A stretch of 64,000 nucleotides of DNA from an uncultured Bacteroidales bacterium (GTDB taxonomy: Bacteria > Bacteroidota > Bacteroidia > Bacteroidales > UBA10428), in the NCBI GenBank assembly GCA_963822145.1, contig CAWGGG010000004.1, positions 1,659,839-1,723,838 on the forward strand, read 5' to 3'. Positions 10,913 to 30,445 of the stretch are shown here, in pieces. The notes under the pieces are model-generated. The model searched no databases. It had not been told where the DNA came from and saw nothing but the letters and a program-made list of their open reading frames with translations. How positions within the stretch are numbered: the stretch's first letter is position 1; every line of letters starts with the position of its first letter. The translations under genes were made by a program, and so were the position numbers.

Positions 10913-12817
10913 ATGAAACAATATCATATCGTGTTTATCCTGTTCCTTGCTTTTACCTGCACCTGGTTTTCGTGCGGCGAGGACTGGTTCGATGTTCAGC
11001 CTAAAGGGGTAATGGATCAGAACATTCTGGCAACCGAAGCAGGTATTGATGACATGCTTGTCGGCGCGTATTCGATGCTCGATGGCGTTTCAGCAAACTT
11101 TGGCTGGGAAGCCGCTTCTTCCAATTGGATTTATGGTTCTATCAGGGGGTTGGAAGCCAACAGGGGATCAGATGCAGGAGATGCAGCGGAGGATAATCCC
11201 ATTATGACATACTCTGAAGCACCGACCAATTCCTATCTGAATGCTAAATGGCGGGAGGTTTATGAAGCCATATCCAGGTGCAACCTGGCCATTATGCTGA
11301 CCAACCTGGCCCTGGAAAAAGGCACCATCACGAATGACCAGGCTGTCCTGTTCTACAAGCAGGCCAGGGTATTGCGCGGCTGGTATCATTTCGAGGCCTG
11401 GCGGATGTGGGAGATGGTACCCTATTTTGACGAGAATACTGGCGCGGACAATTTTACCAATACGGTTGACATTCGAGACAACATCCTTGCTGACCTGCAG
11501 GAGGGTATTACCTTGCCCGATAATATGGGACAGGTGGGACGTTTCAATAGCACCGTTTCCAAAGTGCTGTTGGCCAAAGCCCTCATGCAGCTCTACCACA
11601 ATTACACCGATGCCCTGCCCCTGCTGCAGGAAGTGATTACCAGCGGCACCAAGCCGGACGGTTCACCCATAGGACTTGCCCCAACCTACGGGGAAGTTTT
11701 TGATATTGAATACCGAAATGGCATTGAGGCAGTTTACACGGTTCAGTATTCCGTAAATGACGGTTCCGGCGGATGGAACGGTGGCTGGGGCGAAGTGCTG
11801 AACTTCCCTTATAAAACCAGTGCTTCTCCGGGGGGGTGTTGCGGGTTTTTCCAGCCTAACCAGGAGTTCGTGAATTCGTTCCGGACATCTGGCGGGCTGC
11901 CACTGCTGGATAACAGTTATAATGCCCCCGAAAATACCGATTTCAGGGATTTCGGCGTTACCGGTGGTGATGTCTGGGATTCAACCAAGACCTATACAAG
12001 GGATTCAGATTATAATTATTATGGCGGTAACTCAGGATGTACAGTTTATGATCCGGCCCATCCCTTCACCGACCTGGGATATGTATCGCTTATAGATAAT
12101 AATAAGGGCAATAACCCACTCACCAGTCCGGCAGCCTGGGAACTCCGCTGGATAGAGGACCATTCGCTGCCAACTGACCCGCGACTCGACTGGACCGCAG
12201 GTCGCAGAGGAATCCCATACTGGGACTGGGGTGTGCATACCGGTTCCGACTGGATCCGCGACCAGTCCTATTCCGGTCCGTACAGTCCCAAGAAGCAGGT
12301 ATATAAAAAATCGCAAGAAGGCATTTATACCGAAACCGGTAACTGGACCAGCGGATGGACCGCCAACGGCTACCGCATGATCCGGTATGCCGATGTGCTC
12401 CTGCTGTTAGCGGAATGCCAGATCGAGACCGGCAATCTCCCCGGCGCCCTGGAGAACATCAACCTGGTGCGGGCCCGGGCGGCCAATCCGGATGGCTTTG
12501 TAAAAGAAGATGACGGTGTGACCCCTGCTGCCAATTACCAGGTAGGGCTTTATCCTTCGTTCCCCGATGCCGATTATGCCCGGAATGCGCTCCGGATGGA
12601 GCGGAAACTGGAGCTCGGCATGGAAGGGCACCGGTTCTTCGACCTGAACCGGTGGGGCATTACTGTTGAAGAATTAAACCGGGCCCTGGCTTACGAAAAG
12701 ACAACGCCATGGGGTTATAAATATGGGTCCAGTATTGTTGGGCCCGAAGATGTTACCTATCCGATACCCCAGCGCCAGATCGACCAGAGTGGCGGTAAGC
12801 TGGTACAGAACCGGTAA
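10913..12817 (+). CDS. SusD/RagB-family lipoprotein (copy 2, long variable insert)
   Basis: The ORF track starts at TTG 10898, directly abutting the SusC stop. ATG 10913 gives MKQYHIVFILFLAFTCTWFSC, a lipoprotein signal. SusD body is shared with 2322-4061 and 12858-14606. Confidence 0.9.
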   Translation: MKQYHIVFILFLAFTCTWFSCGEDWFDVQPKGVMDQNILATEAGIDDMLVGAYSMLDGVSANFGWEAASSNWIYGSIRGLEANRGSDAGDAAEDNPIMTYSEAPTNSYLNAKWREVYEAISRCNLAIMLTNLALEKGTITNDQAVLFYKQARVLRGWYHFEAWRMWEMVPYFDENTGADNFTNTVDIRDNILADLQEGITLPDNMGQVGRFNSTVSKVLLAKALMQLYHNYTDALPLLQEVITSGTKPDGSPIGLAPTYGEVFDIEYRNGIEAVYTVQYSVNDGSGGWNGGWGEVLNFPYKTSASPGGCCGFFQPNQEFVNSFRTSGGLPLLDNSYNAPENTDFRDFGVTGGDVWDSTKTYTRDSDYNYYGGNSGCTVYDPAHPFTDLGYVSLIDNNKGNNPLTSPAAWELRWIEDHSLPTDPRLDWTAGRRGIPYWDWGVHTGSDWIRDQSYSGPYSPKKQVYKKSQEGIYTETGNWTSGWTANGYRMIRYADVLLLLAECQIETGNLPGALENINLVRARAANPDGFVKEDDGVTPAANYQVGLYPSFPDADYARNALRMERKLELGMEGHRFFDLNRWGITVEELNRALAYEKTTPWGYKYGSSIVGPEDVTYPIPQRQIDQSGGKLVQNR

Positions 12818-12857
12818 TTCATTCCTTTCGGGATTAATATTTCTTAATCTTGCTACA

Positions 12858-14606
12858 ATGATCCATCATTCAAGGTTTAATAAACACAGAATACGGTCGG
12901 GAAAGGTCATGCTCGTCCTGTTCCTTGCTATCAACTGGGCCTGCAATGAGGACTGGTTTGATGTTCAGCCCAAAGGGGTAATGGATCAGCACATTCTGGC
13001 AACCGAAGCAGGTATTGATGACATGCTTGTCGGAGCTTATTCCATGCTCGATGGCGTATCCTCCAGTTTCGGCTGGGAATCAGCATCATCCAACTGGGTT
13101 TATGGCTCCATACGGGGACTTGAAGCGAATAAAGGAACGGATGCAGGTGATCCGCCCGATGTCAATCCCATTCAAACCTTCACGGAAACTCCCACGAATC
13201 CTTACCTGAATGTTAAGTGGCGTGAGGTTTACGAGGCCATATCCCGGTGCAATCTCGCTATTATGCTGACCGACATGGCCCTGGAAAAAGGCACCATCAC
13301 AAACGATCAGGCTGTACTGTTCTACAAGCAGGCCAGGGTATTGCGCGGCTGGTATCATTTCGAGGCCTGGCGGATGTGGGAGATGGTACCCTATTTTGAC
13401 GAGAATACTGGCGCGGACAATTTTACCAATACGGTTGACATTCGCGACAACATCCTTGCTGACCTGCAGGAGGGTATTACCTTGCCCGATAATATGGGAC
13501 AGGTGGGACGTTTCAACAGCACCGTTTCCAAAGTGCTGTTGGCCAAAGCCCTCATGCAGCTCTACCACAATTACACCGATGCCCTGCCCCTACTGCAGGA
13601 AGTGATTACCAGCGGCACCAAGCCGGACGGTTCACCCATAGGACTTGCCCCAACCTACGGGGAAGTTTTTGATATTGAATACCGAAATGGCATTGAGGCA
13701 GTTTACACGGTTCAGTATTCCGTAAATGACGGTTCCGGCGGATGGAACGGTGGCTGGGGCGAAGTGCTGAACTTCCCTTATAAAAGCGGTGCCTCCCCGG
13801 GCGGGTGTTGCGGGTTTTACCAGCCCACGCAGGAACTGGTGAATTCATTCCGGACATCGGGCGGTTTACCGTTGCTCGACTTTTCCTACAACAATGATCC
13901 GGTAATCAGCGACCAGGGATTGGCACCTGCTGATCCCTTTACAGAAGACACCGGGCCGCTGGATCCGCGGCTCGACTGGACGGTGGGCAGAAGGGGTATT
14001 CCTTACTGGGACTGGGGTGTGCATACCGGCAGGGACTGGGTCCGGGACCAGAGCTATGCGGGTCCATACAGTCCCAAGAAACAAGTATACAAGAAATCGC
14101 AGGAAGGCATCTATACCGAAACCGGTAACTGGACCAGCGGATGGACGGCCAATGGCTACCGGATGATCCGGTATGCCGATGTGCTCCTGTTGCTGGCAGA
14201 ATGCCAGATCGAAACCGGCAATCTCCCCGGCGCCCTGGAGAACATCAACCTGGTGCGGGCCCGGGCGGCCAATCCGGATGGCTTTGTAAAAGAAGATGAC
14301 GGTGTGACCCCTGCTGCCAATTACCAGATAGGGCCTTATCCTTCGTTCCCCGATGCCGATTATGCCCGGAATGCGCTCCGGATGGAGCGGAAACTGGAGC
14401 TCGGCATGGAAGGTCACCGCTATTTCGACCTGAACCGGTGGGGCATTACCGTGGAAGAACTGAACCGGGCCCTTGACTATGAAAAATCCTCACCCTGGGG
14501 TAGCAGCATGTATGGACATGCTGTTGTGGGTCCTGAAGATGTTACCTATCCGATACCCCAGCGCCAGATCGACCAGAGTGGCGGTAAGCTGGTACAGAAC
14601 CGGTAA
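12858..14606 (+). CDS. SusD/RagB-family lipoprotein (copy 3, tandem duplicate)
   Basis: The ORF track begins at 12723, inside the previous SusD. ATG 12858 (or 12909, MLVLFLAINWAC) is the plausible start. Large blocks are near-identical in DNA to copy 2. Confidence 0.88.
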   Translation: MIHHSRFNKHRIRSGKVMLVLFLAINWACNEDWFDVQPKGVMDQHILATEAGIDDMLVGAYSMLDGVSSSFGWESASSNWVYGSIRGLEANKGTDAGDPPDVNPIQTFTETPTNPYLNVKWREVYEAISRCNLAIMLTDMALEKGTITNDQAVLFYKQARVLRGWYHFEAWRMWEMVPYFDENTGADNFTNTVDIRDNILADLQEGITLPDNMGQVGRFNSTVSKVLLAKALMQLYHNYTDALPLLQEVITSGTKPDGSPIGLAPTYGEVFDIEYRNGIEAVYTVQYSVNDGSGGWNGGWGEVLNFPYKSGASPGGCCGFYQPTQELVNSFRTSGGLPLLDFSYNNDPVISDQGLAPADPFTEDTGPLDPRLDWTVGRRGIPYWDWGVHTGRDWVRDQSYAGPYSPKKQVYKKSQEGIYTETGNWTSGWTANGYRMIRYADVLLLLAECQIETGNLPGALENINLVRARAANPDGFVKEDDGVTPAANYQIGPYPSFPDADYARNALRMERKLELGMEGHRYFDLNRWGITVEELNRALDYEKSSPWGSSMYGHAVVGPEDVTYPIPQRQIDQSGGKLVQNR

Positions 14607-15578
14607 TTACTCCATGTCATCATTACCGGCCAGGCAGGAACTGCAGGAACAATCAATCCTGTCCGCTATGTTCTGACTGAGATTCATGGCATTGATCCTT
14701 TCGGCCCTCCTGTCGGTGCATTTCCGGCAGTGCGAGAAAAGTCCGAGATCCCAGGTATCAGCAAAAATGCGACCAGCTTTAAGGCTTATACCATATTCCA
14801 GGACCATTTCCAGCGACCGGATGTCAGGAGGGATAAAATCGCCCTGCATACGCAATGCTTCCAGGGCCCCATTACCCCCCCTCACCGGTATAACGGTACA
14901 ACATTCCACGCCGGCATGGTAAGCAAAATCAATGGACCGCTCCGCCCAGTAAATACCCTGGGATTCGGATAGAAAAGGAGGGCGCAGCAAAATAAACGCC
15001 CGCGAAAGGATGTTATTCCGCGTCAGATAACTTACAGCGTTACTGAAATCCTCCAGCGTCATCCGTTTGTTGAGCCGCCTGAGTAACACGGGTTGTACGG
15101 TTTCCAGTCCTATGGCCACCTGCAACTCAGGTTTAAGCATATCCCTGAATCGCAGACATTTTTCATTGATGAAACGGGGATGGCTTTCTACAATTACCGT
15201 TTCGAAACCGCTGATCAGCGATGCGATTACCGCATAATCTTCCTCAGGAATAGCCTTTCCGTCAAAGAAGCTTCCGCTGTTGTAGAGTTTCAAATGCCGG
15301 GCCGGAGGCATCTGCTCCAGGGCCATGGCAATCTGATGGGGAATGGCACCCACCGGAACTGGTTCGTCAGTGGTATTCTTCCAGAGATCACACATCAGGC
15401 AGTGGTAGGGACACTCGCGGTTGGTGAGAAAAATAATGCCCGTATCTTCTATCTTGCCCGAAGCCGTAAGCTCCTTTTCAACCAGCCATGCATATGCTAT
15501 TTGAGGATCTACAGGGTTCTTAGGACCGCGGTGGTGCCACGATCCAACGCTCATTGATTTCTGGTCCCGGGCTTTCAC
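14607..15578 (-). CDS. Radical SAM enzyme with Cys-rich C-terminal tail
   Basis: CPYHCLMC (CX3CX2C) is encoded at 15390-15413. C-terminal tail is HCRKC...CSCSSC. A GTG start at 15578 overlaps the upstream stop (GTGA); an alternative ATG lies at 15554. Confidence 0.8.
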   Translation of the reverse strand: MKARDQKSMSVGSWHHRGPKNPVDPQIAYAWLVEKELTASGKIEDTGIIFLTNRECPYHCLMCDLWKNTTDEPVPVGAIPHQIAMALEQMPPARHLKLYNSGSFFDGKAIPEEDYAVIASLISGFETVIVESHPRFINEKCLRFRDMLKPELQVAIGLETVQPVLLRRLNKRMTLEDFSNAVSYLTRNNILSRAFILLRPPFLSESQGIYWAERSIDFAYHAGVECCTVIPVRGGNGALEALRMQGDFIPPDIRSLEMVLEYGISLKAGRIFADTWDLGLFSHCRKCTDRRAERINAMNLSQNIADRIDCSCSSCLAGNDDME

Positions 15579-16903
15579 TCATAGATGGAAAGAAACTCCT
15601 TTCTGTAGACTATTTCTTTATCGGGGAAATGACTGTTAAATGCCTTCGAAGAGGCTGCTCCATGCTGGAAGCGCCTTTTGGGGAATACCGGCATATCCAT
15701 ACCTGTGACGGCTTTAACACCCAGGGATACGATCTGCCCCTTCAATTCATAGAGCTTCTGGTGGTCCCATTTGGTAAGGTCGATATAGGGAATACCCTCT
15801 GAAATCTCAATCACGTTGGGCAGGGTATATGGGCTGAATCCTTCAAAACCAAGCATAGCCGCGGGGGCCAGGGTACGCATGTATCCCCTGCTCAATCCTC
15901 CGGAATAGGTAAGGGAATGTTTGATGCTGTTCACGCCCCAGCCTTCATGATACAGCATGAGGTTGTTGAGCACGCTCCGTATGGTAAGCTCGGGATTTTC
16001 CTCGATAGGATAATCTTTCAGGTTCTCATCGCCCCCTTCCCCGTCGATGATGTACTTCCATTCGGGGTAGCGCGACCGGATACCCTGCAGCAGGGACAGG
16101 TTCATGGTAGCTGATTGGATGTCCAGCGGCTTGTAGTCCTCAACGATTTGAATGGTTTTTTTCCAGTCGAGGGCTTCATATTCAGCCTCCACGGGTTCCA
16201 GGAACATCTCCAGGTTCAGCATTTCCAGGAATTTCCTGGCCTGGATCAGGTCCTCACCGGCACCATCGATGCTGAGCGTAAAGGCCTTCAACCTTGAAGG
16301 GCTCTCACCGAGCTCCCGCAAGGCATGATACGTAAGCAGGAATACAGAACCGCTGTCGATGCCGGCGGAAAAGGTAACTCCGACCGGTCCTGATTTGGCC
16401 CGGAATAACAACCACTTCCTGATTTCCTGGTACAGGGCTCCGATGTAGAGCTCACCTATTTTTGCCGGGTTATCCGGAGTGAATTTATTCCGTTCGGGAT
16501 TAAAGAACCGGTCGTAAACCGGGTTTGGATCCGGGCATCCCAGCAGCTCTATTCTGGTGATGTAATGGGCCGGGACCATCCGCGTATAGGAGGGATGAAA
16601 CTGGTCGTCCAGCCCTTCCTTTCTAAGATATTCATAAAGTTCATCAATGCGTTCCGCTATTACCAGGCTTGGCCCGGCGGCCCTTTTGGCGATGAAGTAA
16701 CGCAGTGGACGGCCAATGGAACGTGCCATGCGGATGGTTTTTCCATCCACTGAAACCAGAGAGAACTGTCCGTCGATCCTGCGCACAGCTGCAATATCTC
16801 CCGATTTCAAAATATTAACGGCTTCTTCATGAGACATGTTGTAAATGATGTTCTTTTCGGGATTGGTGAGATCCACCACGTTGGCTACATATTGGCTATT
16901 CAT
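15575..16903 (-). CDS. Asparagine synthetase B-like PP-loop (adenylating) enzyme lacking the glutaminase nucleophile
   Basis: SAGIDSGS PP-loop-type motif with an AsnB-like C-terminal domain. The N-terminus is MNSQY, with no Cys2 as required for class-II glutamine amidotransferase activity. Confidence 0.72.
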   Translation of the reverse strand: MNSQYVANVVDLTNPEKNIIYNMSHEEAVNILKSGDIAAVRRIDGQFSLVSVDGKTIRMARSIGRPLRYFIAKRAAGPSLVIAERIDELYEYLRKEGLDDQFHPSYTRMVPAHYITRIELLGCPDPNPVYDRFFNPERNKFTPDNPAKIGELYIGALYQEIRKWLLFRAKSGPVGVTFSAGIDSGSVFLLTYHALRELGESPSRLKAFTLSIDGAGEDLIQARKFLEMLNLEMFLEPVEAEYEALDWKKTIQIVEDYKPLDIQSATMNLSLLQGIRSRYPEWKYIIDGEGGDENLKDYPIEENPELTIRSVLNNLMLYHEGWGVNSIKHSLTYSGGLSRGYMRTLAPAAMLGFEGFSPYTLPNVIEISEGIPYIDLTKWDHQKLYELKGQIVSLGVKAVTGMDMPVFPKRRFQHGAASSKAFNSHFPDKEIVYRKEFLSIYE

Positions 16904-16961: not shown

Positions 16962-16983
16962 CTTCAACTGCGCTCAGTGTGAC
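16962..16983. repeat. Copy of the dispersed motif (cttcaactgcgctcagtgtgac)
   Basis: Matches 40792-40813 (cttcgactccgctcagtgtgac) with 2 mismatches, plus shared flanks aatgcac... and ...tgYtgtt. It contains the stop codon of 16974-18641. Confidence 0.5.
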
Positions 16984-18641
16984 TGTGTTGTTATACCTTT
17001 GCCCTGAATAATGGCAACATATCGGTCGGCTGCAAGGTTCCTAAATACTTCCTTCACCCCGTCAGACCAGATGATCTCAAGTTGCTCCACCTCTTTTTCC
17101 TGGGCAAGACCGATGTGCAGCCGGGGGTCATTATTGGAAAGGTAACTGGTGGCCCATTGGTTGACCAACACCTGTTTCTTACCACCGGCAGTGACAATAA
17201 CTTTAGCGCCGATGGCTGAAGCAGGCCCGTCTTTGCCTTTCAGGGTAAGCCCCAGCCAGTGGTTGGCATTGCCCCCGTCATTCCTCAGTAATATGGGTGT
17301 TGCCATCAGATCAACATGAGAAACCACAATATCCAGGTCCCCGTCATTATCATAATCCCATATGGCTGCACCACGACCGGAACGCTTGGTAGTAAAATAT
17401 GTTCCCATTTCCTTCCCTGCATCCCTGAAGTGACCTTTTCCGTCATTCTCCAGCAGCAGGGGTAGCTGCAGGATGAGTTCCTCTGCAGTACCGTTTGCCG
17501 CAAAAATATCAAGATCACCATCATTGTCAAAATCCAGAAAGGCTGCCCCCCAGCTCCCCTTTCCAGCCATATAGCCGGCAATCCCGCTTATCTCAGTAAT
17601 ATCGGTGTATACACCGCTTCCCATGTTGCGGTAAAGGGCGCCATATTCCAGATCGGTTACTAATATATCCTGTCTTCCATCGCCATCCACATCCCCGATT
17701 GTCCCATGCATGGATCCCGTCCCTTTGCCCTGACTGTTGGCTGCCACACCGCTTGCCACGCCAACTTCTCTGTATACCCCGTCATCATTCCTGAATAGGA
17801 AATTCAACTGATGATCGTTAGCCTGGAAGATATCCAGATCACCATCATCATCGCTGTCAAAAACAGTGAGTCCCATACATTTGGAATCGGGATAATACAG
17901 GTCTTTCTGCCGGGTCACATCTGTGAACTTACCATTGGGTTGCTGCTCATAGAGCATCGATGCCTGTCCGTTGTATTCAGAGGGGTGCGGCATCAGATCG
18001 GGTGTTGCCGGTGATTTATAGGCGGGATCAAAAGCCAGGAAGTTACCCACCATGGCATCCAACCTGCCATCCCGGTTATAATCCCAGAATATTACCCCTA
18101 TGCTCCATTTTGTAAAGCCGTTCAGGTTCTCCGGTCCCTGCAGTCCCAATGCATTTGTAATGTCCGTGAAGGTGCCATTCCCGTTATTGCGATAAAATAC
18201 ATTGGGACCGTAGTTCAGCAGATACAAGTCCTGGTCGCCGTCATTGTCATAATCCACGGCTCCTGCAGCCATACTCCAGTGGGTATCGACGATTCCTGCT
18301 TTTGCCGATATATCCGTAAACGTTCCGTTACCATTATTTTTATAAAGCTTGTCGGTGGTGTTCTTGAATACTTTCCCCTCAGGATCGGAAATGCCTTCCA
18401 GGTAGGTTCCGTTCATCATGAACAGGTCCATCAGCCCGTCGTTGTTATAATCGAATACTGTGATCCCCGATCCGCTGCTTTCGAGAATATTCTTATAGGA
18501 ATGATCGCCGAAGGTGTACCTGAAATTAATGCCGGCCTGTTTGGTCACATCGGTAAACGTTATGCTTTTCTTCTGCGCTCGGGATATTGCCGGAACCCAT
18601 AACAGGCAAATAATATTTATTAAAACAATCAACTTCTTCAT
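16974..18641 (-). CDS. FG-GAP/VCBS + ASPIC/UnbV protein (CRTAC1-like), 555 aa, secreted
   Basis: Signal peptide. Repeats DYNNDGLMDLF, DYDNDGDQDLY, DSDDDGDLDIF, DFDNDGDLDIF. C-terminal UnbV/ASPIC signature (IGAKVIVTAGGKKQ...YLSNNDPRLHIGL...LEIIWSDG). Confidence 0.85.
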   Translation of the reverse strand: MKKLIVLINIICLLWVPAISRAQKKSITFTDVTKQAGINFRYTFGDHSYKNILESSGSGITVFDYNNDGLMDLFMMNGTYLEGISDPEGKVFKNTTDKLYKNNGNGTFTDISAKAGIVDTHWSMAAGAVDYDNDGDQDLYLLNYGPNVFYRNNGNGTFTDITNALGLQGPENLNGFTKWSIGVIFWDYNRDGRLDAMVGNFLAFDPAYKSPATPDLMPHPSEYNGQASMLYEQQPNGKFTDVTRQKDLYYPDSKCMGLTVFDSDDDGDLDIFQANDHQLNFLFRNDDGVYREVGVASGVAANSQGKGTGSMHGTIGDVDGDGRQDILVTDLEYGALYRNMGSGVYTDITEISGIAGYMAGKGSWGAAFLDFDNDGDLDIFAANGTAEELILQLPLLLENDGKGHFRDAGKEMGTYFTTKRSGRGAAIWDYDNDGDLDIVVSHVDLMATPILLRNDGGNANHWLGLTLKGKDGPASAIGAKVIVTAGGKKQVLVNQWATSYLSNNDPRLHIGLAQEKEVEQLEIIWSDGVKEVFRNLAADRYVAIIQGKGITTQSH

Positions 18642-18673: not shown

Positions 18674-21600
18674 TCATTTAATCTTCATTTCCTTTAAGGC
18701 ATCAAGGTATCCTTCAGTGGTCACCACCCGGGTATTGTATTCCCGGTTGTAACGTTGAAGGACAGGATCAGCCGGATAATAATCCTTTGCACCCGGAGGA
18801 TAGCTTTTCATGCCGTGAAAAGGCAGCGGATCAACGGTATTGCCATGAGCCGTATTCAGATCGCCATCCTTTACCCATCCTACGCTGTGGATCAGGAAAT
18901 CCCTTTTCCATCCGTTCTTCAATTCAGGCAAGATATTGGCGTCGAAGGTAACCGAGGTTTCATCTCCGGCATTGGAAATGATATACTGGTTGTCTGCCTC
19001 TCTGAGCAGGGTTGTTACATCGCCATATCGGGTATAATTGCCGGTCAGGTCCCTCCATCTCGTGTCCTTATCCACGACGGCATAATCAAACCAGTGAGGA
19101 CCGTATCGGCCGCCCTTCCGGTAGGTGTCTGAGAATCCCCGGTAATGGAGATCAGCGCTGACCGGGTCCAATACAGTGGATTTTACAGGGGCGCTGCTGA
19201 CTTCATCTGAAAAGAAAACATAATCCCAGTTAATGTCCATATTGGTCCTGATCCGGATCCGGTGATCACCGGAAAGGAATTTACCGGTAAGGTCAGCAAT
19301 CACCGTTTTATCCTTGCCCATCGGAAAACCAGGATTATCAATAACTGTCTCCCATTCACCCTTCCTGTTAACCACCTGGATGACCGGTGGCATCACTGTA
19401 AGGTTACCCGACTGTGAAAGGGCTACATTGATACTGGCATCCGTAGGGAAGATCCAGCCATTAAGGAAAAGAAACAAGGTTTTACTGCCCGAAAGCCTGC
19501 CAGGATCGAGGATCAGGTCTTTCATCTCCGTAATGCCCTGATATTTGGCGGGTTTATACCCGGCCAGGTAATTATCATCCTTCTCTGAAATGAAGGACAG
19601 TACATCATTCCCCCGGGAATCCCGGGCGGAAACGGGCACCTGCTTCCTGCCTACCTGGTATACCTGGTAGCCGGGAAAAGGCGGTGGTGAAAACTGCTCG
19701 GCGACATAAATATCAACAGAATCGGGATGATCCACAGCAACCAGCTGCAATTTATCGAAGTAAATGGTCTCCCACAGCTCTGAGGTCACCTGGATGGAAT
19801 AAGATCCCTTATTGGGCTTTAGCATTTCACCCGGTATCCTGATATAATCATCGGAGGCCTCGGCAAAAGCATAGGCAGTATTGCCACCCATGATTCCCAG
19901 AGGCATACCGAGAGCGCTTCTCCAGAGAATGTCCTTGGCAAAAACATACTGGCTGCCGTTCCAGGTATACAGGAAGGGACAGGACCCTTTCAGGGTCTGT
20001 GCCTCAATAAGAGCCTGGTCGGTTCCCGGGGAGAAAATGTTCTGGGGAACACCATTCGTCCAGGTAATCCGGATCACATCTGTTTTAGCCCTGCTTCCAA
20101 TACCGAAATGGACATTCGGATCAGTAACCACTGTAGTCTGATAAAGGTCTCCTGAACGCATTTCCACCTTGGCTCCTATGCCAAAGTGATTATTCTTGGC
20201 GCTTCCTGCCTTCAACCCCACCAATTTCATCTTTACATAGTGGTTGTTGTTCCCCCCATCGTTCCTGAACAGGGAAATTCCACCATTTAAACCGGCGATC
20301 AGCAGGTCAAGATCTCCGTCATCATTGTAATCAAAAACAGCAATTTGCCTGCCCGATTTCACCTCAGCCGGGAGCAGATTGGAGACATCGGTAAAACCTC
20401 CCTTACCGTTGTTGTGAAACATGAAAAGTCCCTTCCCTTCAGTTCCTGATGAGCCGGCCACCATCAGATCGATATATCCGTCATTATCGAAATCCAGGAA
20501 AGCAGCATCGTAAACCTTCCCCTGTCTGAGGGGAAGAAAGACTTCCATTCCTTTACTAACACGTTCAAAACTACCATTGCGCAAATTCCGGAAGAGTTCG
20601 GAGCTGCCTCCGTTATCGGAAACGATGAATACATCGAGGTATCCGTCATTGTCATAATCTCCCACTGCTATTGCACTGTTGCCACCGGCACTTTTCAAGC
20701 CGCTTTTTTCCGTTACGTCCTTGAAAATGCCCTGCCGCTGGTTGGAGTAAAGAATGCAACCGGTCTTTTCATTCACCACGATAAAATCGATGTCGCCGTC
20801 CTCGTCAAAATCGCCAAAGGCTGCATCGCGACCCACATCACCACTTCCCGAAATACCCATTTTCGCGGCCTGCTCGGTGAAGGTGCCGTCTGCATTGTTA
20901 CGCAACAAAAGGTTAGGACTGGACCCGGCCTCAAAGATATCCAGGTCACCGTCATGATCCAGATCAAAAAACAGGGCCTTGTTTCCCCCGGTCTTAATCC
21001 CGGCAAGTGCTTTGTTGCTAACTTCCTCAAAATTACCCTGTCCGGCGTTGCGGTACAATACATCACCCCCATCTTTCACGACATACAGGTCGAGAAACCC
21101 GTCATTGTCATAATCCGCAAAACAGGCGTCATATTCTTTACCGGTATGGTTGATGCCTGCCTCAGCGGTAATATCCTTAAATCTTCCCATTTCATTAATG
21201 AGGAGATAGTGCTTATATGTGTCAGAAACAGGATTAAAACTGCCCGCGTAAAGATCAATATCCCCGTCACTGTCAAAATCAGCTGCAGCGACATGTGCGG
21301 TGTTCTCAGTCCCCCTATTCTGAGCCTGCGACCCGGCAGGAATAATATCAAGACCTGCAGAAGCCGAAACCTCAGCGAACCTGATCACCTCCAGAATTGA
21401 CTCGTTCTCGGCTAACTGGGAGGTGGATTGCTGGTCGAAGGTGATGAGCGGAAAACCGATCAGGGATCCGCCAGGTCCTTTTAAATCCACGATGCCGGCC
21501 TGGTAAGGAGAGGTCACTTTAAGATAATTGTGAAAAATCGTAAACTGAATGATCCCATTATCCTTATCATGCTTTTTCAGCAGGGAAATGGTCTTATCAT

Positions 21601-22240
21601 AATAACCTGCTGCTTCCTTGGGAAAATCCGGGAATTGCTTTTGGATCATTTCAAGATGTTCCAGGGCTTTATCGGTTTCTCCCTTCTGGATATAGATTTC
21701 CGTGAGATTCAGCCGTGGCACTAAATTCCCGGGCGCTTTCTCAACCAGCTTAAGCATGTATTCTTCACGCAATTGCCGTGAGGCTTCATCCGCTTGTGTG
21801 GCATAAACCTCGGTAAGATCATAAAGCACCTTAACATGATCGGGAGAAGATTTAAGCGCTTCCTGGAGCTGTGCAATAGCCGCTTCAGGTTTATCTTCCA
21901 TCTTATAGACAGTCGCCAGGATCAGCCTGATGTCAGCATCTTTGGGATCAATTTTCAGACCCTTTAACAGTTGTTCCTCTGCCTCAGGGTACCGGGCCAT
22001 CCTCAGGTATACCAGCCCCAGGTTGGCATATCCAAGTTTTTCCCTGGGAGCCAGTTCAATAAACCTTAAAAACTGCTGCTCCGCTTCTTCATCTTTAAAC
22101 TCCTCCAGGTAAGCCAGACCCAGGGTTTTGATGGTCATCAGATCGGTGGATTTCTGCTTGTCCTTTTCTGCAGGGTTTTTACAGCCTGACTGCAATAACA
22201 TGCAGAGTGCTATCAGAAGGATGGTTTGTAGTGTTTTCAT
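18674..22240 (-). CDS. TPR + FG-GAP/VCBS + ASPIC/UnbV lipoprotein with about 420-aa uncharacterised C-terminal extension (1188 aa)
   Basis: Lipobox (LLQSGC). TPR-like N-terminal third. Repeats DFDSDGDIDLY, DYDNDGFLDLY, DLDHDGDLDIF, DFDEDGDIDFI and others. UnbV-like GIGAKVEMRSG...VHFGIG...IRITWTNG, followed by a long extra region starting GSCPFLYTWNGSQYVF. Confidence 0.85.
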   Translation of the reverse strand: MKTLQTILLIALCMLLQSGCKNPAEKDKQKSTDLMTIKTLGLAYLEEFKDEEAEQQFLRFIELAPREKLGYANLGLVYLRMARYPEAEEQLLKGLKIDPKDADIRLILATVYKMEDKPEAAIAQLQEALKSSPDHVKVLYDLTEVYATQADEASRQLREEYMLKLVEKAPGNLVPRLNLTEIYIQKGETDKALEHLEMIQKQFPDFPKEAAGYYDKTISLLKKHDKDNGIIQFTIFHNYLKVTSPYQAGIVDLKGPGGSLIGFPLITFDQQSTSQLAENESILEVIRFAEVSASAGLDIIPAGSQAQNRGTENTAHVAAADFDSDGDIDLYAGSFNPVSDTYKHYLLINEMGRFKDITAEAGINHTGKEYDACFADYDNDGFLDLYVVKDGGDVLYRNAGQGNFEEVSNKALAGIKTGGNKALFFDLDHDGDLDIFEAGSSPNLLLRNNADGTFTEQAAKMGISGSGDVGRDAAFGDFDEDGDIDFIVVNEKTGCILYSNQRQGIFKDVTEKSGLKSAGGNSAIAVGDYDNDGYLDVFIVSDNGGSSELFRNLRNGSFERVSKGMEVFLPLRQGKVYDAAFLDFDNDGYIDLMVAGSSGTEGKGLFMFHNNGKGGFTDVSNLLPAEVKSGRQIAVFDYNDDGDLDLLIAGLNGGISLFRNDGGNNNHYVKMKLVGLKAGSAKNNHFGIGAKVEMRSGDLYQTTVVTDPNVHFGIGSRAKTDVIRITWTNGVPQNIFSPGTDQALIEAQTLKGSCPFLYTWNGSQYVFAKDILWRSALGMPLGIMGGNTAYAFAEASDDYIRIPGEMLKPNKGSYSIQVTSELWETIYFDKLQLVAVDHPDSVDIYVAEQFSPPPFPGYQVYQVGRKQVPVSARDSRGNDVLSFISEKDDNYLAGYKPAKYQGITEMKDLILDPGRLSGSKTLFLFLNGWIFPTDASINVALSQSGNLTVMPPVIQVVNRKGEWETVIDNPGFPMGKDKTVIADLTGKFLSGDHRIRIRTNMDINWDYVFFSDEVSSAPVKSTVLDPVSADLHYRGFSDTYRKGGRYGPHWFDYAVVDKDTRWRDLTGNYTRYGDVTTLLREADNQYIISNAGDETSVTFDANILPELKNGWKRDFLIHSVGWVKDGDLNTAHGNTVDPLPFHGMKSYPPGAKDYYPADPVLQRYNREYNTRVVTTEGYLDALKEMKIK

Positions 22241-22272: not shown

Positions 22273-22300
22273 GTCATGTTGAGCGGAGTCGAAACATGAC
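22273..22300. repeat. Hairpin copy of a dispersed TTCGACTCCGCTCA motif
   Basis: gtcatgtt-gagcggagtcga-aacatgac: 8-bp stem, 12-nt loop, overlapping the stop codon of 22300-23400. The core is shared with 16962-16983 and 40792-40813. Confidence 0.55.
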
Positions 22301-23400
22301 TAGAATCCTGACCCCTTCACCTCCTCTGGCCATCCGTTTTTAATGACCATCAGCTTACAAGAACCCGTCCGATTCCCTTTGTCGTCAAACTTAATTTGTC
22401 CGGTAACCCCTTCAACCTGTATTTCTGACAAGGCCTGCTGAATTTTTTCACGGTCCGGACTGCCGGAAATTCTGATGGCTTCTATAAGGACGTTCATTCC
22501 ATCAAAGGCATATGCAGCAACTCCGCCCGGCATTCTACCATAGGTTTTCTGATAGGCCTGATTGAAAATCCGGCTTTTTGTTATTGAAGACATGGAAGGG
22601 ACCAATAACAGATTGTCAAACTCATGCAATTCCTGCACGGATAATGCATCCTCATTCAGAATCGACAGGGAGCCAAAAAGGGTTTGGTTCATTTTCCTTT
22701 GCCTGAGCAGCCTGACTATTTTTAATGAAACGGAAGGCTGGCAAAACAAAATGATCGCATTGATTTCAGATTTATTAATATGGTCCGCTAAAGCATTTAG
22801 ATTTGTGCTATAATTATTGAAAAGAAATTGCAGGGGCTCATTCTTACCTGACTCCCGAATTTTCTGCAAATAGTTTTTTAATGCCATGTTTGAATCATAA
22901 GTCTGATCCGAAATGACAGCTACCCTGATGATTTTTCTATTATTGTATATTTCATCAATCAATGCATCTGCCTGTTGGCGGTCAGTTGGCACACAGTTAT
23001 AGAACCAGGGGACAAAAGCCTGGGAAAGTGTCGGATCGGATGACCAGGCAGAAACCAAAACAACCGTTGATTTGGTGGCTGCCTGTTCCACAAGGTGAGC
23101 ATTTCGGCCATCATGGGATCCCAGCAGCGCCCATACATTCTCTTCAAAGATGAGGGATACTGCTTGTTTGGACCCAGTCCCCCAGGGTCCTTCCATGCTT
23201 TTTACATGAAGCTGAAACAGCCGGCCTTTTAAGCCCCCTTCTTCATTGGCCATTTTAATAGCCAGTTCTGCACCCTGCTTTGCGGCCAAAGAAGTTTTGT
23301 CCTGGACTAAAAGACCTATTTTTACGGGTTCGGTTTTTTGGGCTGGTAGTGAGAAAGCAAGGAAGATCAGGAAGGATATGAGGGGAATCTTAGAATGCAT
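22300..23400 (-). CDS. Periplasmic binding protein, LivJ/Leu-Ile-Val-binding (type I PBP) family, secreted
   Basis: Likely start is ATG 23400 (MHSKIPLISFLIFLAFSLPAQ signal); the ORF track extends to 23478. LivJ-like layout: VKIGLLVQ...GAELAIKMANEEGGLKGR...LLGSHDG. No ABC permease or ATPase genes are nearby. Confidence 0.72.
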   Translation of the reverse strand: MHSKIPLISFLIFLAFSLPAQKTEPVKIGLLVQDKTSLAAKQGAELAIKMANEEGGLKGRLFQLHVKSMEGPWGTGSKQAVSLIFEENVWALLGSHDGRNAHLVEQAATKSTVVLVSAWSSDPTLSQAFVPWFYNCVPTDRQQADALIDEIYNNRKIIRVAVISDQTYDSNMALKNYLQKIRESGKNEPLQFLFNNYSTNLNALADHINKSEINAIILFCQPSVSLKIVRLLRQRKMNQTLFGSLSILNEDALSVQELHEFDNLLLVPSMSSITKSRIFNQAYQKTYGRMPGGVAAYAFDGMNVLIEAIRISGSPDREKIQQALSEIQVEGVTGQIKFDDKGNRTGSCKLMVIKNGWPEEVKGSGF

Positions 23401-23508
23401 GGTTTTTACTACGAGGTTGTGAAACATCCTCACAGAGGATGAATTATGGTGGAAACTTGAACGAATAAGATCATACAACCCTGAAGGGGTGGAATAATTC
23501 TACGATTA

Positions 23509-24372
23509 TTATAAAATTTCTCTGCCAACAGCCAATGCAATCTTTTTCAGATCCTTCATTAATTGTTCAAATTCAGGCAGGCTGATCGATTGCTGTCCGT
23601 CACAAAGCGCTTCTTCGGGCTTATAATGAACCTCCATAATAAGACCATCAGCTCCGGCTGCCACGGCGGCTTTGGCCATGGTAGGTACCATCCACCGGAG
23701 TCCTGTGCCATGACTGGGATCCACAATTACAGGAAGATGGCTGAGATGTTTTAACATGGGCACGGCACTTAGATCAAGGGTATTCCGGGTGGAGGTTTCA
23801 AAGGTCCGTATGCCTCTTTCACACAATACTACCTGTTCGTTGCCCTGTCTCAGGATATATTCGGACGCCAGCAGGAATTCTTCAATGGTAGCCATCATGC
23901 CCCGCTTCAACAAAACAGGTTTACGGGTCATCCCCACTTCTTTCAGCAGCGGGTAATTCTGCATGTTGCGTGATCCCACCTGAAGCATATCGGCATACCT
24001 GCTGACAACTTCAATTTGCCGGGTATCCATGACTTCCGTTACGACCGGCAAACCCGTTCTGATGCTGATCTCATGAAGCATTTTTAAGCCTTCTTCCCCA
24101 AGCCCCTGGAAGCTGTATGGTGAAGAACGCGGCTTAAAGGCACCCCCTCTGAGTATTTTCGCACCGTTTTTCCTGACGGAAACTGCTGTTTCAGCTAATT
24201 GTTCCATGCTCTCCACCGCGCAGGGGCCTGCAATAATGATCACTTCAGAGCCTCCTATTACAGCATCTTTAACCTTGACCAGTATGGGGTCCGGTTTTGT
24301 TTTTTTATTTGTTTTCATGGGAGCCAAGCATTCAATAATTTCCTGGTCGCTGTTGATTTTTGTTTCCATCAT
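23509..24372 (-). CDS. 3-deoxy-7-phosphoheptulonate (DAHP) synthase, type I-beta (KDO8PS-like) family
   Basis: [57 protein letters not shown] and [10 protein letters not shown] are all hallmark I-beta DAHPS segments. No signal peptide. Confidence 0.88.
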
Positions 24373-24410
24373 GTTCAGTTTCTAATTCAACCCACTTGCA
24401 AATAGAAATC

Positions 24411-25700
24411 TCATTGTAATTCCTTTTTATAGGGAGGCGCAGGCGAAAACTCAAATTTGCCGTTACTGATTTTTGCCAGATAGATGGGCCTAATATTGTT
24501 CCAGGTCGCATCAAATACCATCTTTCCAGAAGCTCCCTCATATCCCTGGAATGTTTTCAAGTCAGTGAGGACATCGCGGATCAGGACACGATTGAGCCCT
24601 GCCTTTTTTATGGACTCAATGATCAGGTTCATTCCATCATAGGCGTGCACGGCAAAAACGTCAGGCTCCATTCCAAAGCGCTTTTTGTAGTTCAACCTGA
24701 ATGCTGCCAGTTTTGGATCTTTTGAATCGGGATTATATTGACAGGTGGTCATAATTCCATCAGCCAGCTTTCCGGCAATACTCAGGAATTCAGGATTTAC
24801 GATCCTGTCGGAACAGAAGACCGGCTGATTCATGCCCATCTTACGTAAATCCTTGAGAATCAAGGCAGATTCCTTTGGATTTCCCCATATTATAATAGCA
24901 TCCGGTTTTGTATCCTTTATCCGCTGCAGTTGCTCAGTAAATACCGTTTCACCATCTTTGAAACGCTCCTCGATAATAATGGGATAACCCAAACGGGTAG
25001 CGGTTTTATTAAAATGAACGACTCCCACCCTGCCATAACGGTTATTTACCCTGATCACAGCAACCCTGGAATGGCTGTTAAGTTCGAAAATGTAATTTGC
25101 CAGTGCATAACAACTTTGCCGGTCATCGGGAATGACTCTTATCACCCAGGGAATATTGGTCTCAGTAAAGGTAGGATCGGGGTCACCGGTACAAACCATC
25201 GGTATTTCCAGTTTGAGAGTGGCACGAATGGCCACATGGGATACAATATCATCAATTGAACCCAGCCAGGCCCAGACTCCCTCATCGTCCATCTTCACCA
25301 CCTCGTTGGCAGCCGCACCCCAAAGTCCGACATCGTTATGGATCATCATTTTATAAGGAATACCCTTGTACCCGCCTTTTTTGTTGGCCTCCTCAATGGC
25401 CAGCGTGGCCCCCTGGAGCATCTGCTTACCGTAATCAACAATGATCGATCCCTCAAGAGGCCCGAGAAAACCTATCCTGACTTCCTTAAGGTTGGTGGGT
25501 GGCGGTATTTCACGTCCGGCCCCGTAAAACTGCATGGGAGTAAGAAAATGGTATTTGTAGGCCTTCTGGTATTTATCGTAGGCAACGTATGTTTCCGGAA
25601 CATTTCCATAGTTATCGCCATATTGTTGCCCTGAAGTCATTGAAATGGCAAAGAACATCAGCACTAAAGATGTTAAAACTGACTTTACGGTTGGTTTCAT
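24411..25700 (-). CDS. Periplasmic binding protein, LivJ-like (type I PBP) family, secreted
   Basis: Likely start is ATG 25700 (MKPTVKSVLTSLVLMFFAISMTSG signal). VRIGFLGPLEG...GATLAIEEANKKGGYKG...WLGSID fits the LivJ-like fold. Second orphan PBP in the cluster. Confidence 0.72.
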   Translation of the reverse strand: MKPTVKSVLTSLVLMFFAISMTSGQQYGDNYGNVPETYVAYDKYQKAYKYHFLTPMQFYGAGREIPPPTNLKEVRIGFLGPLEGSIIVDYGKQMLQGATLAIEEANKKGGYKGIPYKMMIHNDVGLWGAAANEVVKMDDEGVWAWLGSIDDIVSHVAIRATLKLEIPMVCTGDPDPTFTETNIPWVIRVIPDDRQSCYALANYIFELNSHSRVAVIRVNNRYGRVGVVHFNKTATRLGYPIIIEERFKDGETVFTEQLQRIKDTKPDAIIIWGNPKESALILKDLRKMGMNQPVFCSDRIVNPEFLSIAGKLADGIMTTCQYNPDSKDPKLAAFRLNYKKRFGMEPDVFAVHAYDGMNLIIESIKKAGLNRVLIRDVLTDLKTFQGYEGASGKMVFDATWNNIRPIYLAKISNGKFEFSPAPPYKKELQ

Positions 25701-25741
25701 ATCCATTGTTATTATTTCTATTAGCAATCAGTATAAACAAA

Positions 25742-26929
25742 TTAATTGATCACTTCTCCGCGGCTTAAACCTTTGGAAGTTGCCACCCATATGACATCAC
25801 CTTCTGCATCGGCATTAATTACAAAGCTATGGGCGATGGAAGGAGATATCGGAATCTCTTTTTTCTCATTTCCGGAAGTGATGATCGCCACCCCGCTGGT
25901 GTTGTTTTCATTCCGTTTATAGGTAACCCAGGTCGTACCATCAGTAGTGCTTAATCCTTTATCCGTACAAGCATAGGCAACTCTCCCGTTAACCTGCACA
26001 AAGTTTATGAAATTGCTGGCCAGTCCGCTGTCATGATCAAAGTATCCCTTCCAGTTCTTGCCATCGTACCTGCAAAAGCCAAAGTAGGAGGATACCCAGA
26101 GAACGCCGTTGGCCCAGGCGGTAGCTGTAGTAATATCATGAACAGGTCCGTCATCGGGAAGGAGATCTATCTCCATAAAGCCATCAGGATCAACATAATC
26201 CCTGAAATGCTTGGTTTCCTTGTTATATTCAATTATACCTCCACCCCAGGCTGCAATGAAGATCTTCCCCTGTCCGGCTGAAAGCGCATAGGTCCAGGGT
26301 TCATGCATCGGAGCATTCATTTCGGTGAAGATTTCCCATTCCTTAGTATAGGTGTCATAATGGCCTGCACCGCCCCCTGTGGCCATCCAAACATCCTTAC
26401 CGTCGCATACTACATTGTAAACAAGGTCGTTGGGCATGCCGCTGTTCATCTGGGTGAAAGTTTCAAACTTCCCGGATGACCATCGGTTCAACCCGCCTAG
26501 GGTTCCGATCCAAACATCACCCGTAACCGGGCTGACATCAACCGAAACTACGCCATTATGTGCCAGTCCGTCTTTGGTGGTATAGGTTTTCCATTTGCCG
26601 TTCTCATAAACTGCCAGGCCATGGTGAGTGCCAACCAGCACGCGATCACCATCGATCTTAACCGAGTAAACCTTATCGGAAGGGAGTCCGTCTTGCGTGG
26701 TGAAATTCCGCCAGTTGCCGTATACCGGCATGCCATTGGCCTCTTTTATGGAGGTAGTGGCTGAAGGCCCGGCAACATAATCGCTGTCTGAAGAAGATGA
26801 TTTTTCCGACGGCGGCCTCCCGGTCCCGGATTGGCCCTTTTCCGGTTTTTTTACAAACAATACAGCCACTACTATAATAGCTACAACAACCAGTGCTGCA
26901 ATTGAATATTGGAGAATTCTTGATTTCAT
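25742..26929 (-). CDS. Membrane-anchored beta-propeller protein with two-component-regulator-propeller (Reg_prop)-type repeats, no kinase domain
   Basis: N-terminal TM helix, then a Ser-rich linker. Repeats of the type DGLPSDKVYSVKIDGDRVLVGTHHGLAVYENGKWKTY / DGLAHNGVVSVDV..GDVWIGTLGGLNRW. Confidence 0.68.
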   Translation of the reverse strand: MKSRILQYSIAALVVVAIIVVAVLFVKKPEKGQSGTGRPPSEKSSSSDSDYVAGPSATTSIKEANGMPVYGNWRNFTTQDGLPSDKVYSVKIDGDRVLVGTHHGLAVYENGKWKTYTTKDGLAHNGVVSVDVSPVTGDVWIGTLGGLNRWSSGKFETFTQMNSGMPNDLVYNVVCDGKDVWMATGGGAGHYDTYTKEWEIFTEMNAPMHEPWTYALSAGQGKIFIAAWGGGIIEYNKETKHFRDYVDPDGFMEIDLLPDDGPVHDITTATAWANGVLWVSSYFGFCRYDGKNWKGYFDHDSGLASNFINFVQVNGRVAYACTDKGLSTTDGTTWVTYKRNENNTSGVAIITSGNEKKEIPISPSIAHSFVINADAEGDVIWVATSKGLSRGEVIN

Positions 26930-26958
26930 AGTGTTACGGTTAGGTGATATGTTTATTG

Positions 26959-28998: not shown

Positions 28999-29000
28999 AA

Positions 29001-30437: not shown

Positions 30438-30445
30438 GCAACTGA

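Follow-up and report, generated by a model that had tools for sequence, protein, structure and literature searches.

What does an enzyme resembling asparagine synthetase (AS-like) but without the N-terminal cysteine nucleophile do in the company of a radical SAM enzyme? The question is raised by two adjoining genes, here called A and R, in a 64,000-nucleotide stretch of DNA from an uncultured Bacteroidales bacterium (GTDB lineage UBA10428; contig CAWGGG010000004.1 of assembly GCA_963822145.1, positions 1,659,839 to 1,723,838), which as a whole is called the window below. A previous inspection of these letters without database searches, the sequence-only reading, had taken the two genes for an enzyme cassette that acts for the adjoining exported proteins. 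Comparison across genomes shows that A and R are an obligate two-enzyme module with one universal genomic partner, a secreted lipoprotein (G2) that is encoded in the same operon here. The genes and junctions on which this rests are the following (aa, amino acids):

15575-16903, minus strand: gene A, 442 aa, AS-like adenylating enzyme, no N-terminal Cys nucleophile
14607-15578, minus strand: gene R, 323 aa, radical SAM enzyme, by sequence a bacterial sister of archaeal RaSEA (TIGR01210)
15575-15578, minus strand: overlap of the A stop with the R start (GTGA), read from the sequence
16974-18641, minus strand: gene G1, directly upstream of A, 555-aa secreted FG-GAP/UnbV_ASPIC (CRTAC1-like) protein (Pfam)
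18674-22240, minus strand: gene G2, 1188-aa lipoprotein with TPR, FG-GAP propeller, UnbV_ASPIC and a 444-aa C-terminal module (Pfam)
18677-20008: C-terminal module of G2, residues 745-1188, no Pfam domain

Pairing of A with R and the link to G2

Relatives of A are numerous, with more than 8,000 in the protein collection, mostly of exactly 442 aa, and a pattern scan with one genome per species found them in at least 541 genomes at 59-83% identity. The A-R pair spans about eight phyla with some 60% identity between phyla; Bacteroidota, Chlorobiota, Calditrichota, Marinisomatota, Planctomycetota, Verrucomicrobiota, Acidobacteriota, and Abditibacteriota are among the phyla with A. Cultured organisms among the hits of the scan are Lutibacter citreus, Lutimonas saemankumensis, and Novipirellula rosea. 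Within Bacteroidota, A occurs in 17 of 301 genomes (8 of 144 genera) and R in the identical 17. There, R lies 3' of A on the same strand in 12/12 sampled loci, two of which have one or two genes in between. Across about eight phyla, tblastn placed R directly 3' of A in 67 of the 80 assessable loci of a set of 82 (L025-L106; 2 from contig look-ups and 80 from the species scan). R is non-adjacent in 13 genomes, 12 of which encode it elsewhere; the neighbors of A in these cases are housekeeping genes (e.g., ribBA, an RNA methyltransferase gene, and a glmM-like gene) and uninformative. Because the phyletic patterns are identical, the genes are coupled, and they co-occur even when unlinked, A and R are an obligate two-enzyme module, and the linkage in other genomes that the sequence-only reading had proposed to look for is real.

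The gene junctions point the same way. As had been read before, the TGA of A shares bases with the GTG at 15578 that opens R (GTGA), and the overlap in homologous loci is 4 or 8 nt. An ATG 24 nt downstream of this GTG (MSVGSW...) is an alternative start of R, and A and R are tightly packed either way, so that translational coupling is predicted from the sequence. A 70-nt gap upstream of A and a zero gap downstream of R leave no room for a precursor-peptide open reading frame next to the pair, in agreement with the earlier remark that none is visible. On this downstream side, the stop of R abuts the stop of a convergent SusD gene (12723-14606) with no intergenic base (14604-14609). The genes 3' of R vary among relatives (truA, YdjC-like, and others), and A-R is thus the conserved 3' end of the operon.

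The proteins of the G2 type across A-bearing genomes are TPR/FG-GAP/ASPIC lipoproteins of roughly 1,150-1,250 aa with a unique C-terminal module. This module was found in 43/43 A-bearing genomes tested (17 Bacteroidota, 6 Planctomycetota, and 20 others), mostly, in Bacteroidota, megabases from A. Its background frequency in Bacteroidota is 6% (19/301 genomes, including all 17 with A), and the two extra module-bearing genomes belong to a single genus; a search at E 0.001 still gave no A in either. Among 201 Planctomycetota genomes, 57 (28%) carry the module and 6 carry A, all of them within the 57; the 20 additional A-bearing genomes of other phyla carry it without exception. The A-R pair thus depends on G2 at the genome level, and the universal genomic partner of the pair is G2, not the hydrazine-synthase-like genes of the operon described below. 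The proposed link to adjoining exported proteins has therefore been shown for one of them, G2. This dependence is the first experimental handle on the function of A-R, and it extends to the abundant FG-GAP/ASPIC proteins and the linked hydrazine-synthase-like clusters.

The G2 proteins themselves carry a trace of the association. When 43 full-length G2 proteins are arranged in a tree, those whose genomes carry A fall into separate groups, with 4 label changes vs 14.4 after shuffling, a value reached in 0/500 shuffles. The groups comprise Bacteroidota with 16 A-bearing and 2 A-less members, a Planctomycetota clade with 5 and 1, and a separate clade of 13 rows, all A-less. W773 and W823 are invariant in the A-linked subfamily, whereas the A-less Planctomycetota clade has Gly and Arg there; F828, P932, N586, Q748, and Q901 are likewise subfamily-specific, while C754 is conserved in both groups. 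The W773/W823/C754 region may be a site of modification or ligand binding, or may reflect ordinary subfamily divergence. An AlphaFold2 (AF2) model of the C-terminal module consists of beta-sandwiches without significant match in the PDB, the best being discoidin, CBM32, and APC10-like folds at E >1e-3. The neighbors of unlinked G2 genes (SusC, a membrane protein, an NHL propeller, and an acyl-CoA synthetase-like gene) gave no consistent signal. One A-bearing genome (G200) encodes two G2 copies (C323:21201-28672 and C87:22350-23648), one of them ca. 5 kb from a hydrazine-synthase alpha-like gene; given this proximity, the link of G2 to hydrazine-synthase-like genes recurs outside Bacteroidia.

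The two enzymes and their relatives

The motifs that define A and R are located as follows:

16346-16369, minus strand: PP-loop SAGIDSGS, ATP pyrophosphatase motif (A residues 179-186)
15869-16030, minus strand: most conserved stretch of A (DENLKDYPIEENPELTIRSVLNN..YHEGWGV..KHSLTYSGG.SRG; residues 292-345)
16496-16603: invariant block of the N-domain of A (QFHPSYTRMVPAH...GCPDPNP; residues 101-136)
15390-15413, minus strand: CX3CX2C motif of the radical SAM [4Fe-4S] cluster in R (CPYHCLMC; C56, C60, C63)
14643-14729, minus strand: C-terminal CxxC...CxC site of R (C284, C287, C310, C312), putatively zinc-ribbon-like or an auxiliary-cluster site

The sequence-only reading had described A as a PP-loop protein without the N-terminal cysteine, and this description stands. 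A begins with MNSQY, and an N-terminal Cys is present in 0 of 30 aligned homologues from about eight phyla. A mis-called start that would supply Cys2 is ruled out, since no start codon lies between the upstream in-frame stop and the ATG at 16903. Pfam PF00733 (Asn_synthase) covers residues 172-304 only (E 1.6e-10, score 41.7 vs a cut-off of 21), and the full-length families remain below threshold, TIGR01536 with 31.9 bits vs 267 and NF006949 with 18 bits vs 499. Beside the PP-loop SAGIDSGS, which reads SGGIDSGS in most relatives, A has a second ATP motif, DGEGGDEN. Both are conserved and align to the motifs of asparagine synthetase (ASNS), and no substitution of S179, G181, D183, S184, or G185 occurs in 20 homologues from about eight phyla. 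Searched with phmmer against the PDB, A had no match, including none to beta-lactam synthetase (BLS) or CarA. A profile of 20 homologues matched only human ASNS and E. coli AsnB (E 0.003-0.02, A residues 165-296), with SGGIDS opposite SGGLDS and DGDGGDEN opposite SGEGSDE.

Structure prediction reaches further. The AF2 model of A (predicted local distance difference test score, pLDDT, 79.7; predicted TM-score, pTM, 0.83) matched the whole two-domain BLS 1mc1 in Foldseek (E 7.6e-14, TM 0.62, ca. 470 columns), followed by human ASNS, CarA 1q19 (E 9e-12), AsnB, and TsnB9 (E 9.6e-9). With BLS and CarA as best structural matches, the suggested kinship to Cys-less formers of amides and lactams is upheld, and A is predicted to be a very divergent member of the AsnB fold that has intact adenylation motifs and no glutaminase nucleophile. 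Two further regions stand out by their conservation and distinguish A from BLS and CarA. The block from Q101 to P136 in the N-domain (with H103, H113, C123, and D125) is invariant across phyla and may bind a metal or house a relocated catalytic site. Residues 292-345 are near-invariant across phyla, yet they form the only long region of the model with pLDDT <50 and are probably a loop that binds a partner or the substrate. Pfam and Foldseek revealed no RNA-binding domain in A, be it PUA, TGT, or another. In one genome (G072), a fragment resembling A residues 30-98 (54% identity) lies ca. 0.7 kb upstream of the full gene (L020 8529-8735 = L010 632-838); it represents a partial duplication or else what is left of the N-domain in a pseudogene.

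Placement of R by profile search, as previously suggested, makes it a sub-threshold relative of TIGR01210 (RaSEA), with E 2.5e-32 and 112.4 bits vs an equivalog cut-off of 212.15 over model positions 8-297 of 313. Pfam Radical_SAM scores 24.1 bits, under the gathering score of 29.5, and phmmer found no match to R in the PDB. In the 63 homologues aligned, C56, C60, and C63 of the CPYHCLMC motif are invariant, in line with its earlier assignment to a radical SAM enzyme. The extra C-terminal cysteine cluster that had been noted alongside stands in part: C284, C287, C310, and C312 are conserved at 97, 97, 97, and 92%, giving CxxC...CxC, while C315, the last Cys of "CSCSSC", is not conserved. R is the sole strong TIGR01210-like gene in its genome and, judging from these profile matches, is a bacterial sister and full-length homologue of RaSEA, not RaSEA itself. 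Its identity as a true RaSEA or a housekeeping tRNA enzyme is ruled out by the score (112 vs 212 bits) and by the presence of the gene in just 17/301 genomes. Of the findings that the sequence-only reading had named as fatal, neither a start codon of A that gives Cys2 nor a housekeeping role of R was thus encountered.

In most other lineages, a third gene follows. A flavoprotein of ca. 500 aa is encoded after R in Rhodothermales, Planctomycetota, Verrucomicrobiota, Acidobacteriota, and one Bacteroidia genome. It matches Pfam Trp_halogenase; in NCBIfam it comes closest, though always below threshold, to the halogenase CmlS and to three protein-tryptophan hydroxylases (QhpG, LodB, and GoxB); the KxGxxF lysine and the WxWx(L/I) motif are retained. 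A whole-genome search found no homologue in the window's own genome, and close relatives lack it as well. In a metagenome-assembled genome of a single Rhodothermales lineage (L013 7931-8311; also L092), a 126-aa SMR/EmrE-type exporter gene lies between the genes for R and the flavoprotein, a hint that a small product, cationic or hydrophobic, is exported.

Several known systems resemble the pair in part. RaSEA strips the lysine carrier from preQ0-lysine, an N-alkyl amidine (PMC11298593). As in the ArcS-RaSEA system of Euryarchaeota, R is a full-length RaSEA homologue paired with an enzyme that would attach a nitrogen-bearing group. Unlike there, this partner is an ATP-dependent AS-like enzyme and not a TGT/PUA-type ArcS; it is the AS-like enzyme that adjoins R in the loci compared, and ArcS/ArcTGT were not searched for in the genome. 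A-R is moreover bacterial, patchy, tied to a secreted protein, and without tRNA context, with R at 112 vs 212 bits. A shares with BLS and CarA, which use ATP to form an amide, the AsnB fold and the absence of the N-terminal Cys. It differs from them in that no sequence similarity is detectable outside the PP-loop core, its N-domain is highly conserved rather than degenerate, and it has a radical SAM partner; no clavulanate- or carbapenem-type neighbors were seen in about 100 loci. With AsnB and human ASNS (PF00733, TIGR01536), A has in common the PP-loop, the xGxGxDE motif, and the two-domain fold, but not the Cys nucleophile, and the sequences align only over residues 165-296 with a TIGR01536 score of 31.9 vs 267 bits.

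The same superfamily includes PhzH, TsnB9, FzmA, PesC, TsrC/ScdTA, and the lasso cyclases, and it activates carboxylates other than aspartate, among them those of aromatic acids, of polyketides, and at the C-termini of peptides. PhzH makes phenazine-1-carboxamide, TsnB9 a hydroxamate, FzmA a peptide hydrazide, and PesC a peptide nitrile. Most of these enzymes, unlike A, retain a working glutaminase domain or act within recognizable biosynthetic clusters, including those for peptides that are made by ribosomes and modified after translation (RiPPs), and we know of none reported with a RaSEA-type radical SAM partner. On the carboxylates of peptides or polyketides, AS-like enzymes can produce hydrazides, hydroxamates, nitriles, and amides (PMC13622209, PMC13060819), and their chemical range is therefore wide. 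The context of a lasso cyclase (precursor peptide and transglutaminase-like leader peptidase B protein) is absent from the window and the compared neighborhoods. A-R thus joins two well-studied superfamilies, and the only known parallel is archaeal archaeosine synthesis; such an archaeosine-like combination suggests that an ATP-activated carboxylate undergoes radical chemistry of a new kind. In the literature on TIGR01210/COG1244, RaSEA, and AS-like enzymes with radical SAM and halogenase partners, we found no published description of the pair: the superfamilies are known, and what is new is their combination, how it is distributed, and how it is tied to CRTAC1-like proteins.

The operon in the lineage of the window

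The A-R pair ends an 11-gene operon that includes G2 and begins with a CRTAC1-like gene. The genes upstream of G2 occupy 22300-32152 on the minus strand and were assigned with Pfam and NCBIfam:

30446-32152, minus strand: CRTAC1-like FG-GAP/ASPIC protein
29001-30449, minus strand: hydrazine-synthase alpha-like protein (hydrazine_alpha 104.6 bits, cut-off 800)
26959-28998, minus strand: hydrazine-synthase beta-gamma-like protein (hydrazine_BC 213.9 bits, cut-off 1250)
24411-25727 and 22300-23478, minus strand: two binding proteins (Peripla_BP_6)
23509-24372, minus strand: DAHP synthase (type I-beta, 448 bits vs cut-off 335)

In order of transcription, the operon members before G2 are the CRTAC1-like protein, the alpha-like protein, the beta-gamma-like haem propeller, a Reg_prop propeller, a binding protein, the DAHP synthase, and the second binding protein. 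Relatives in the Bacteroidia keep the order G2-G1-A-R, and the rest of the gene set is circularly permuted around it: some have binding protein, DAHP synthase, and binding protein before G2-G1-A-R, and others have the CRTAC1-like, alpha-like, and beta-gamma-like haem propeller, Reg_prop propeller, and binding protein genes after it. A scan for promoters and terminators gave counts at chance level, with no terminator between G1 and A. Since the genome has two more PF00793 paralogues outside the window (at 986417 and 1302201 of contig C4), which makes three in all, we regard the DAHP synthase of the operon as a dedicated extra copy, which suggests a dedicated supply of shikimate precursors for the cluster.

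Hydrazine-synthase-like clusters with a CRTAC1 gene and two binding proteins were described in 2025 as a non-anammox "clade III" (PMC12758564), and neither AS-like nor radical SAM genes are mentioned there (0 occurrences of either term). The operon of the window shares their layout of FG-GAP protein, alpha-like protein, beta-gamma fusion, and binding proteins. Unlike these clusters, A-R is present in many genomes without hydrazine-synthase-like genes. The alpha-like gene occurs in just 2 of the 17 A-bearing Bacteroidota genomes, and hydrazine-synthase-like genes are thereby ruled out as a universal partner of A-R.

Possible products of the module

We tentatively favor, as a reading that may well be wrong, the ligation of a small molecule followed by radical chemistry, with the product serving G2 as ligand or cofactor. 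A would adenylate a carboxylate, most likely that of a small shikimate-derived aromatic acid, and would couple it to an amine that is not obtainable from glutamine, e.g., the amino group of an amino acid. R would take a hydrogen from the position adjacent to this nitrogen, as RaSEA does with preQ0-lysine, and would remove the carrier, leaving an amide or amidine, or would otherwise remodel the adduct. In most other lineages, the halogenase/QhpG-like flavoprotein would add a tailoring step. The product would be used by secreted G2 and, in the lineage of the window, might also serve the neighboring hydrazine-synthase-like haem proteins. A small-molecule substrate is favored because of the dedicated DAHP synthase, the orphan binding proteins, the SMR-type exporter, and the structural kinship of A with BLS and CarA, whose substrates are small molecules; RaSEA, the only characterized member of TIGR01210, also removes a lysine carrier. 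Several points weigh against it. In the known Cys-less AS-like enzymes BLS, CarA, and lasso cyclases, the amine is intramolecular, and a nitrogen donor is not required. Each of DAHP synthase, binding proteins, and exporter is restricted to particular lineages and is no universal partner. An identity of ca. 60% from phylum to phylum, as seen in A, is unusual in secondary metabolism, and a macromolecular substrate or partner is the better fit. Because R scores well below the RaSEA cut-off, its chemistry may differ from that of RaSEA, and the co-occurrence with G2 is compatible with use of the product by G2, with G2 as the substrate, and with a shared niche. A bolder and rather unlikely proposal is that the radical SAM enzyme replaces the lost glutaminase: the AS-like ligase would join a complete amino acid, or some other amine carrier, to an adenylated carboxylate and the RaSEA-type enzyme would cut this carrier off, yielding a new ligand or cofactor, or a protein-derived modification, for the widespread bacterial CRTAC1-like (FG-GAP/ASPIC) secreted proteins. 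If this were true, A-R would be a glutamine-independent amidotransferase driven by ATP and SAM.

The main rival to the small-molecule reading is maturation of a protein, which we consider unlikely though well worth keeping in view: A and R, with the flavoprotein where present, would modify G2 or G1 in the cytoplasm before export, introducing a cross-link or an amide or building a cofactor from tryptophan. Analogues exist in anSME, which matures sulfatases, and in QhpD/QhpG or LodB, which mature quinoproteins. The strict subset relation, with G2 in all 43 A-bearing genomes and also in genomes without A, speaks for it, and the A-tracking subfamily has the invariant W773 and W823 (Gly and Arg in the A-less clade), with C754 shared by both. 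Yet the window's own genome retains both tryptophans without encoding the flavoprotein, and eleven subfamily-specific positions in ca. 1,100 columns amount to ordinary subfamily divergence. That QhpG, LodB, and GoxB are, besides CmlS, the best NCBIfam matches of the flavoprotein would fit maturation, as would the predicted disorder of the most conserved loop of A, which is expected of a surface that binds a macromolecule, and the action of the AS-like enzymes FzmA, PesC, and the lasso cyclases on peptide carboxylates. No RiPP-recognition element, leader peptide, or protease was seen, which speaks against it.

Three other explanations are less likely. The lowest probability falls to RNA modification, i.e., a bacterial counterpart of ArcS-RaSEA that acts on a tRNA or rRNA base such as a 7-deazaguanine or a carboxylated nucleoside. 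The sole characterized relative of R is indeed a tRNA enzyme, A is very strongly conserved, and it adjoins an RNA methyltransferase-like gene and ribBA in some Planctomycetota. But the distribution is patchy (17/301 genomes, 8/144 genera), an RNA enzyme would have no reason to accompany a secreted protein so nearly perfectly, R falls under the family cut-off, and A has no PUA, TGT, or other RNA-binding domain that we could find. Scarcely more probable is N-N or N-O chemistry, in which A would use hydrazine or hydroxylamine from the hydrazine-synthase-like neighbors to make a hydrazide or hydroxamate that R then processes. FzmA converts peptide C-termini to hydrazides and hydroxyamides, the structural matches of A include TsnB9, and A-R shares one operon with the alpha-like and beta-gamma-like genes in Bacteroidia, in circularly permuted orders. 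The alpha-like gene is no general partner, given its presence in 2/17 A-bearing Bacteroidota genomes, and the hydrazine-synthase-like proteins are exported, while A and R are cytoplasmic. Also improbable, if the least so of these three, is a free-standing secondary-metabolite cassette for a lactam or halogenated aromatic compound without functional connection to G2, the co-occurrence being due to ecology or joint horizontal transfer. It would account for BLS and CarA as best structural matches of A, for the halogenase-like flavoprotein with its KxGxxF lysine and WxWx(L/I) motif kept, and for the patchy phyletic distribution. It accords poorly with the absence of nonribosomal peptide synthetase, polyketide synthase, or precursor-peptide genes near the pair in the compared loci, with the 43/43 co-occurrence with G2 across about eight phyla by genes that are mostly unlinked, and with a degree of conservation far above what is usual for secondary metabolism.

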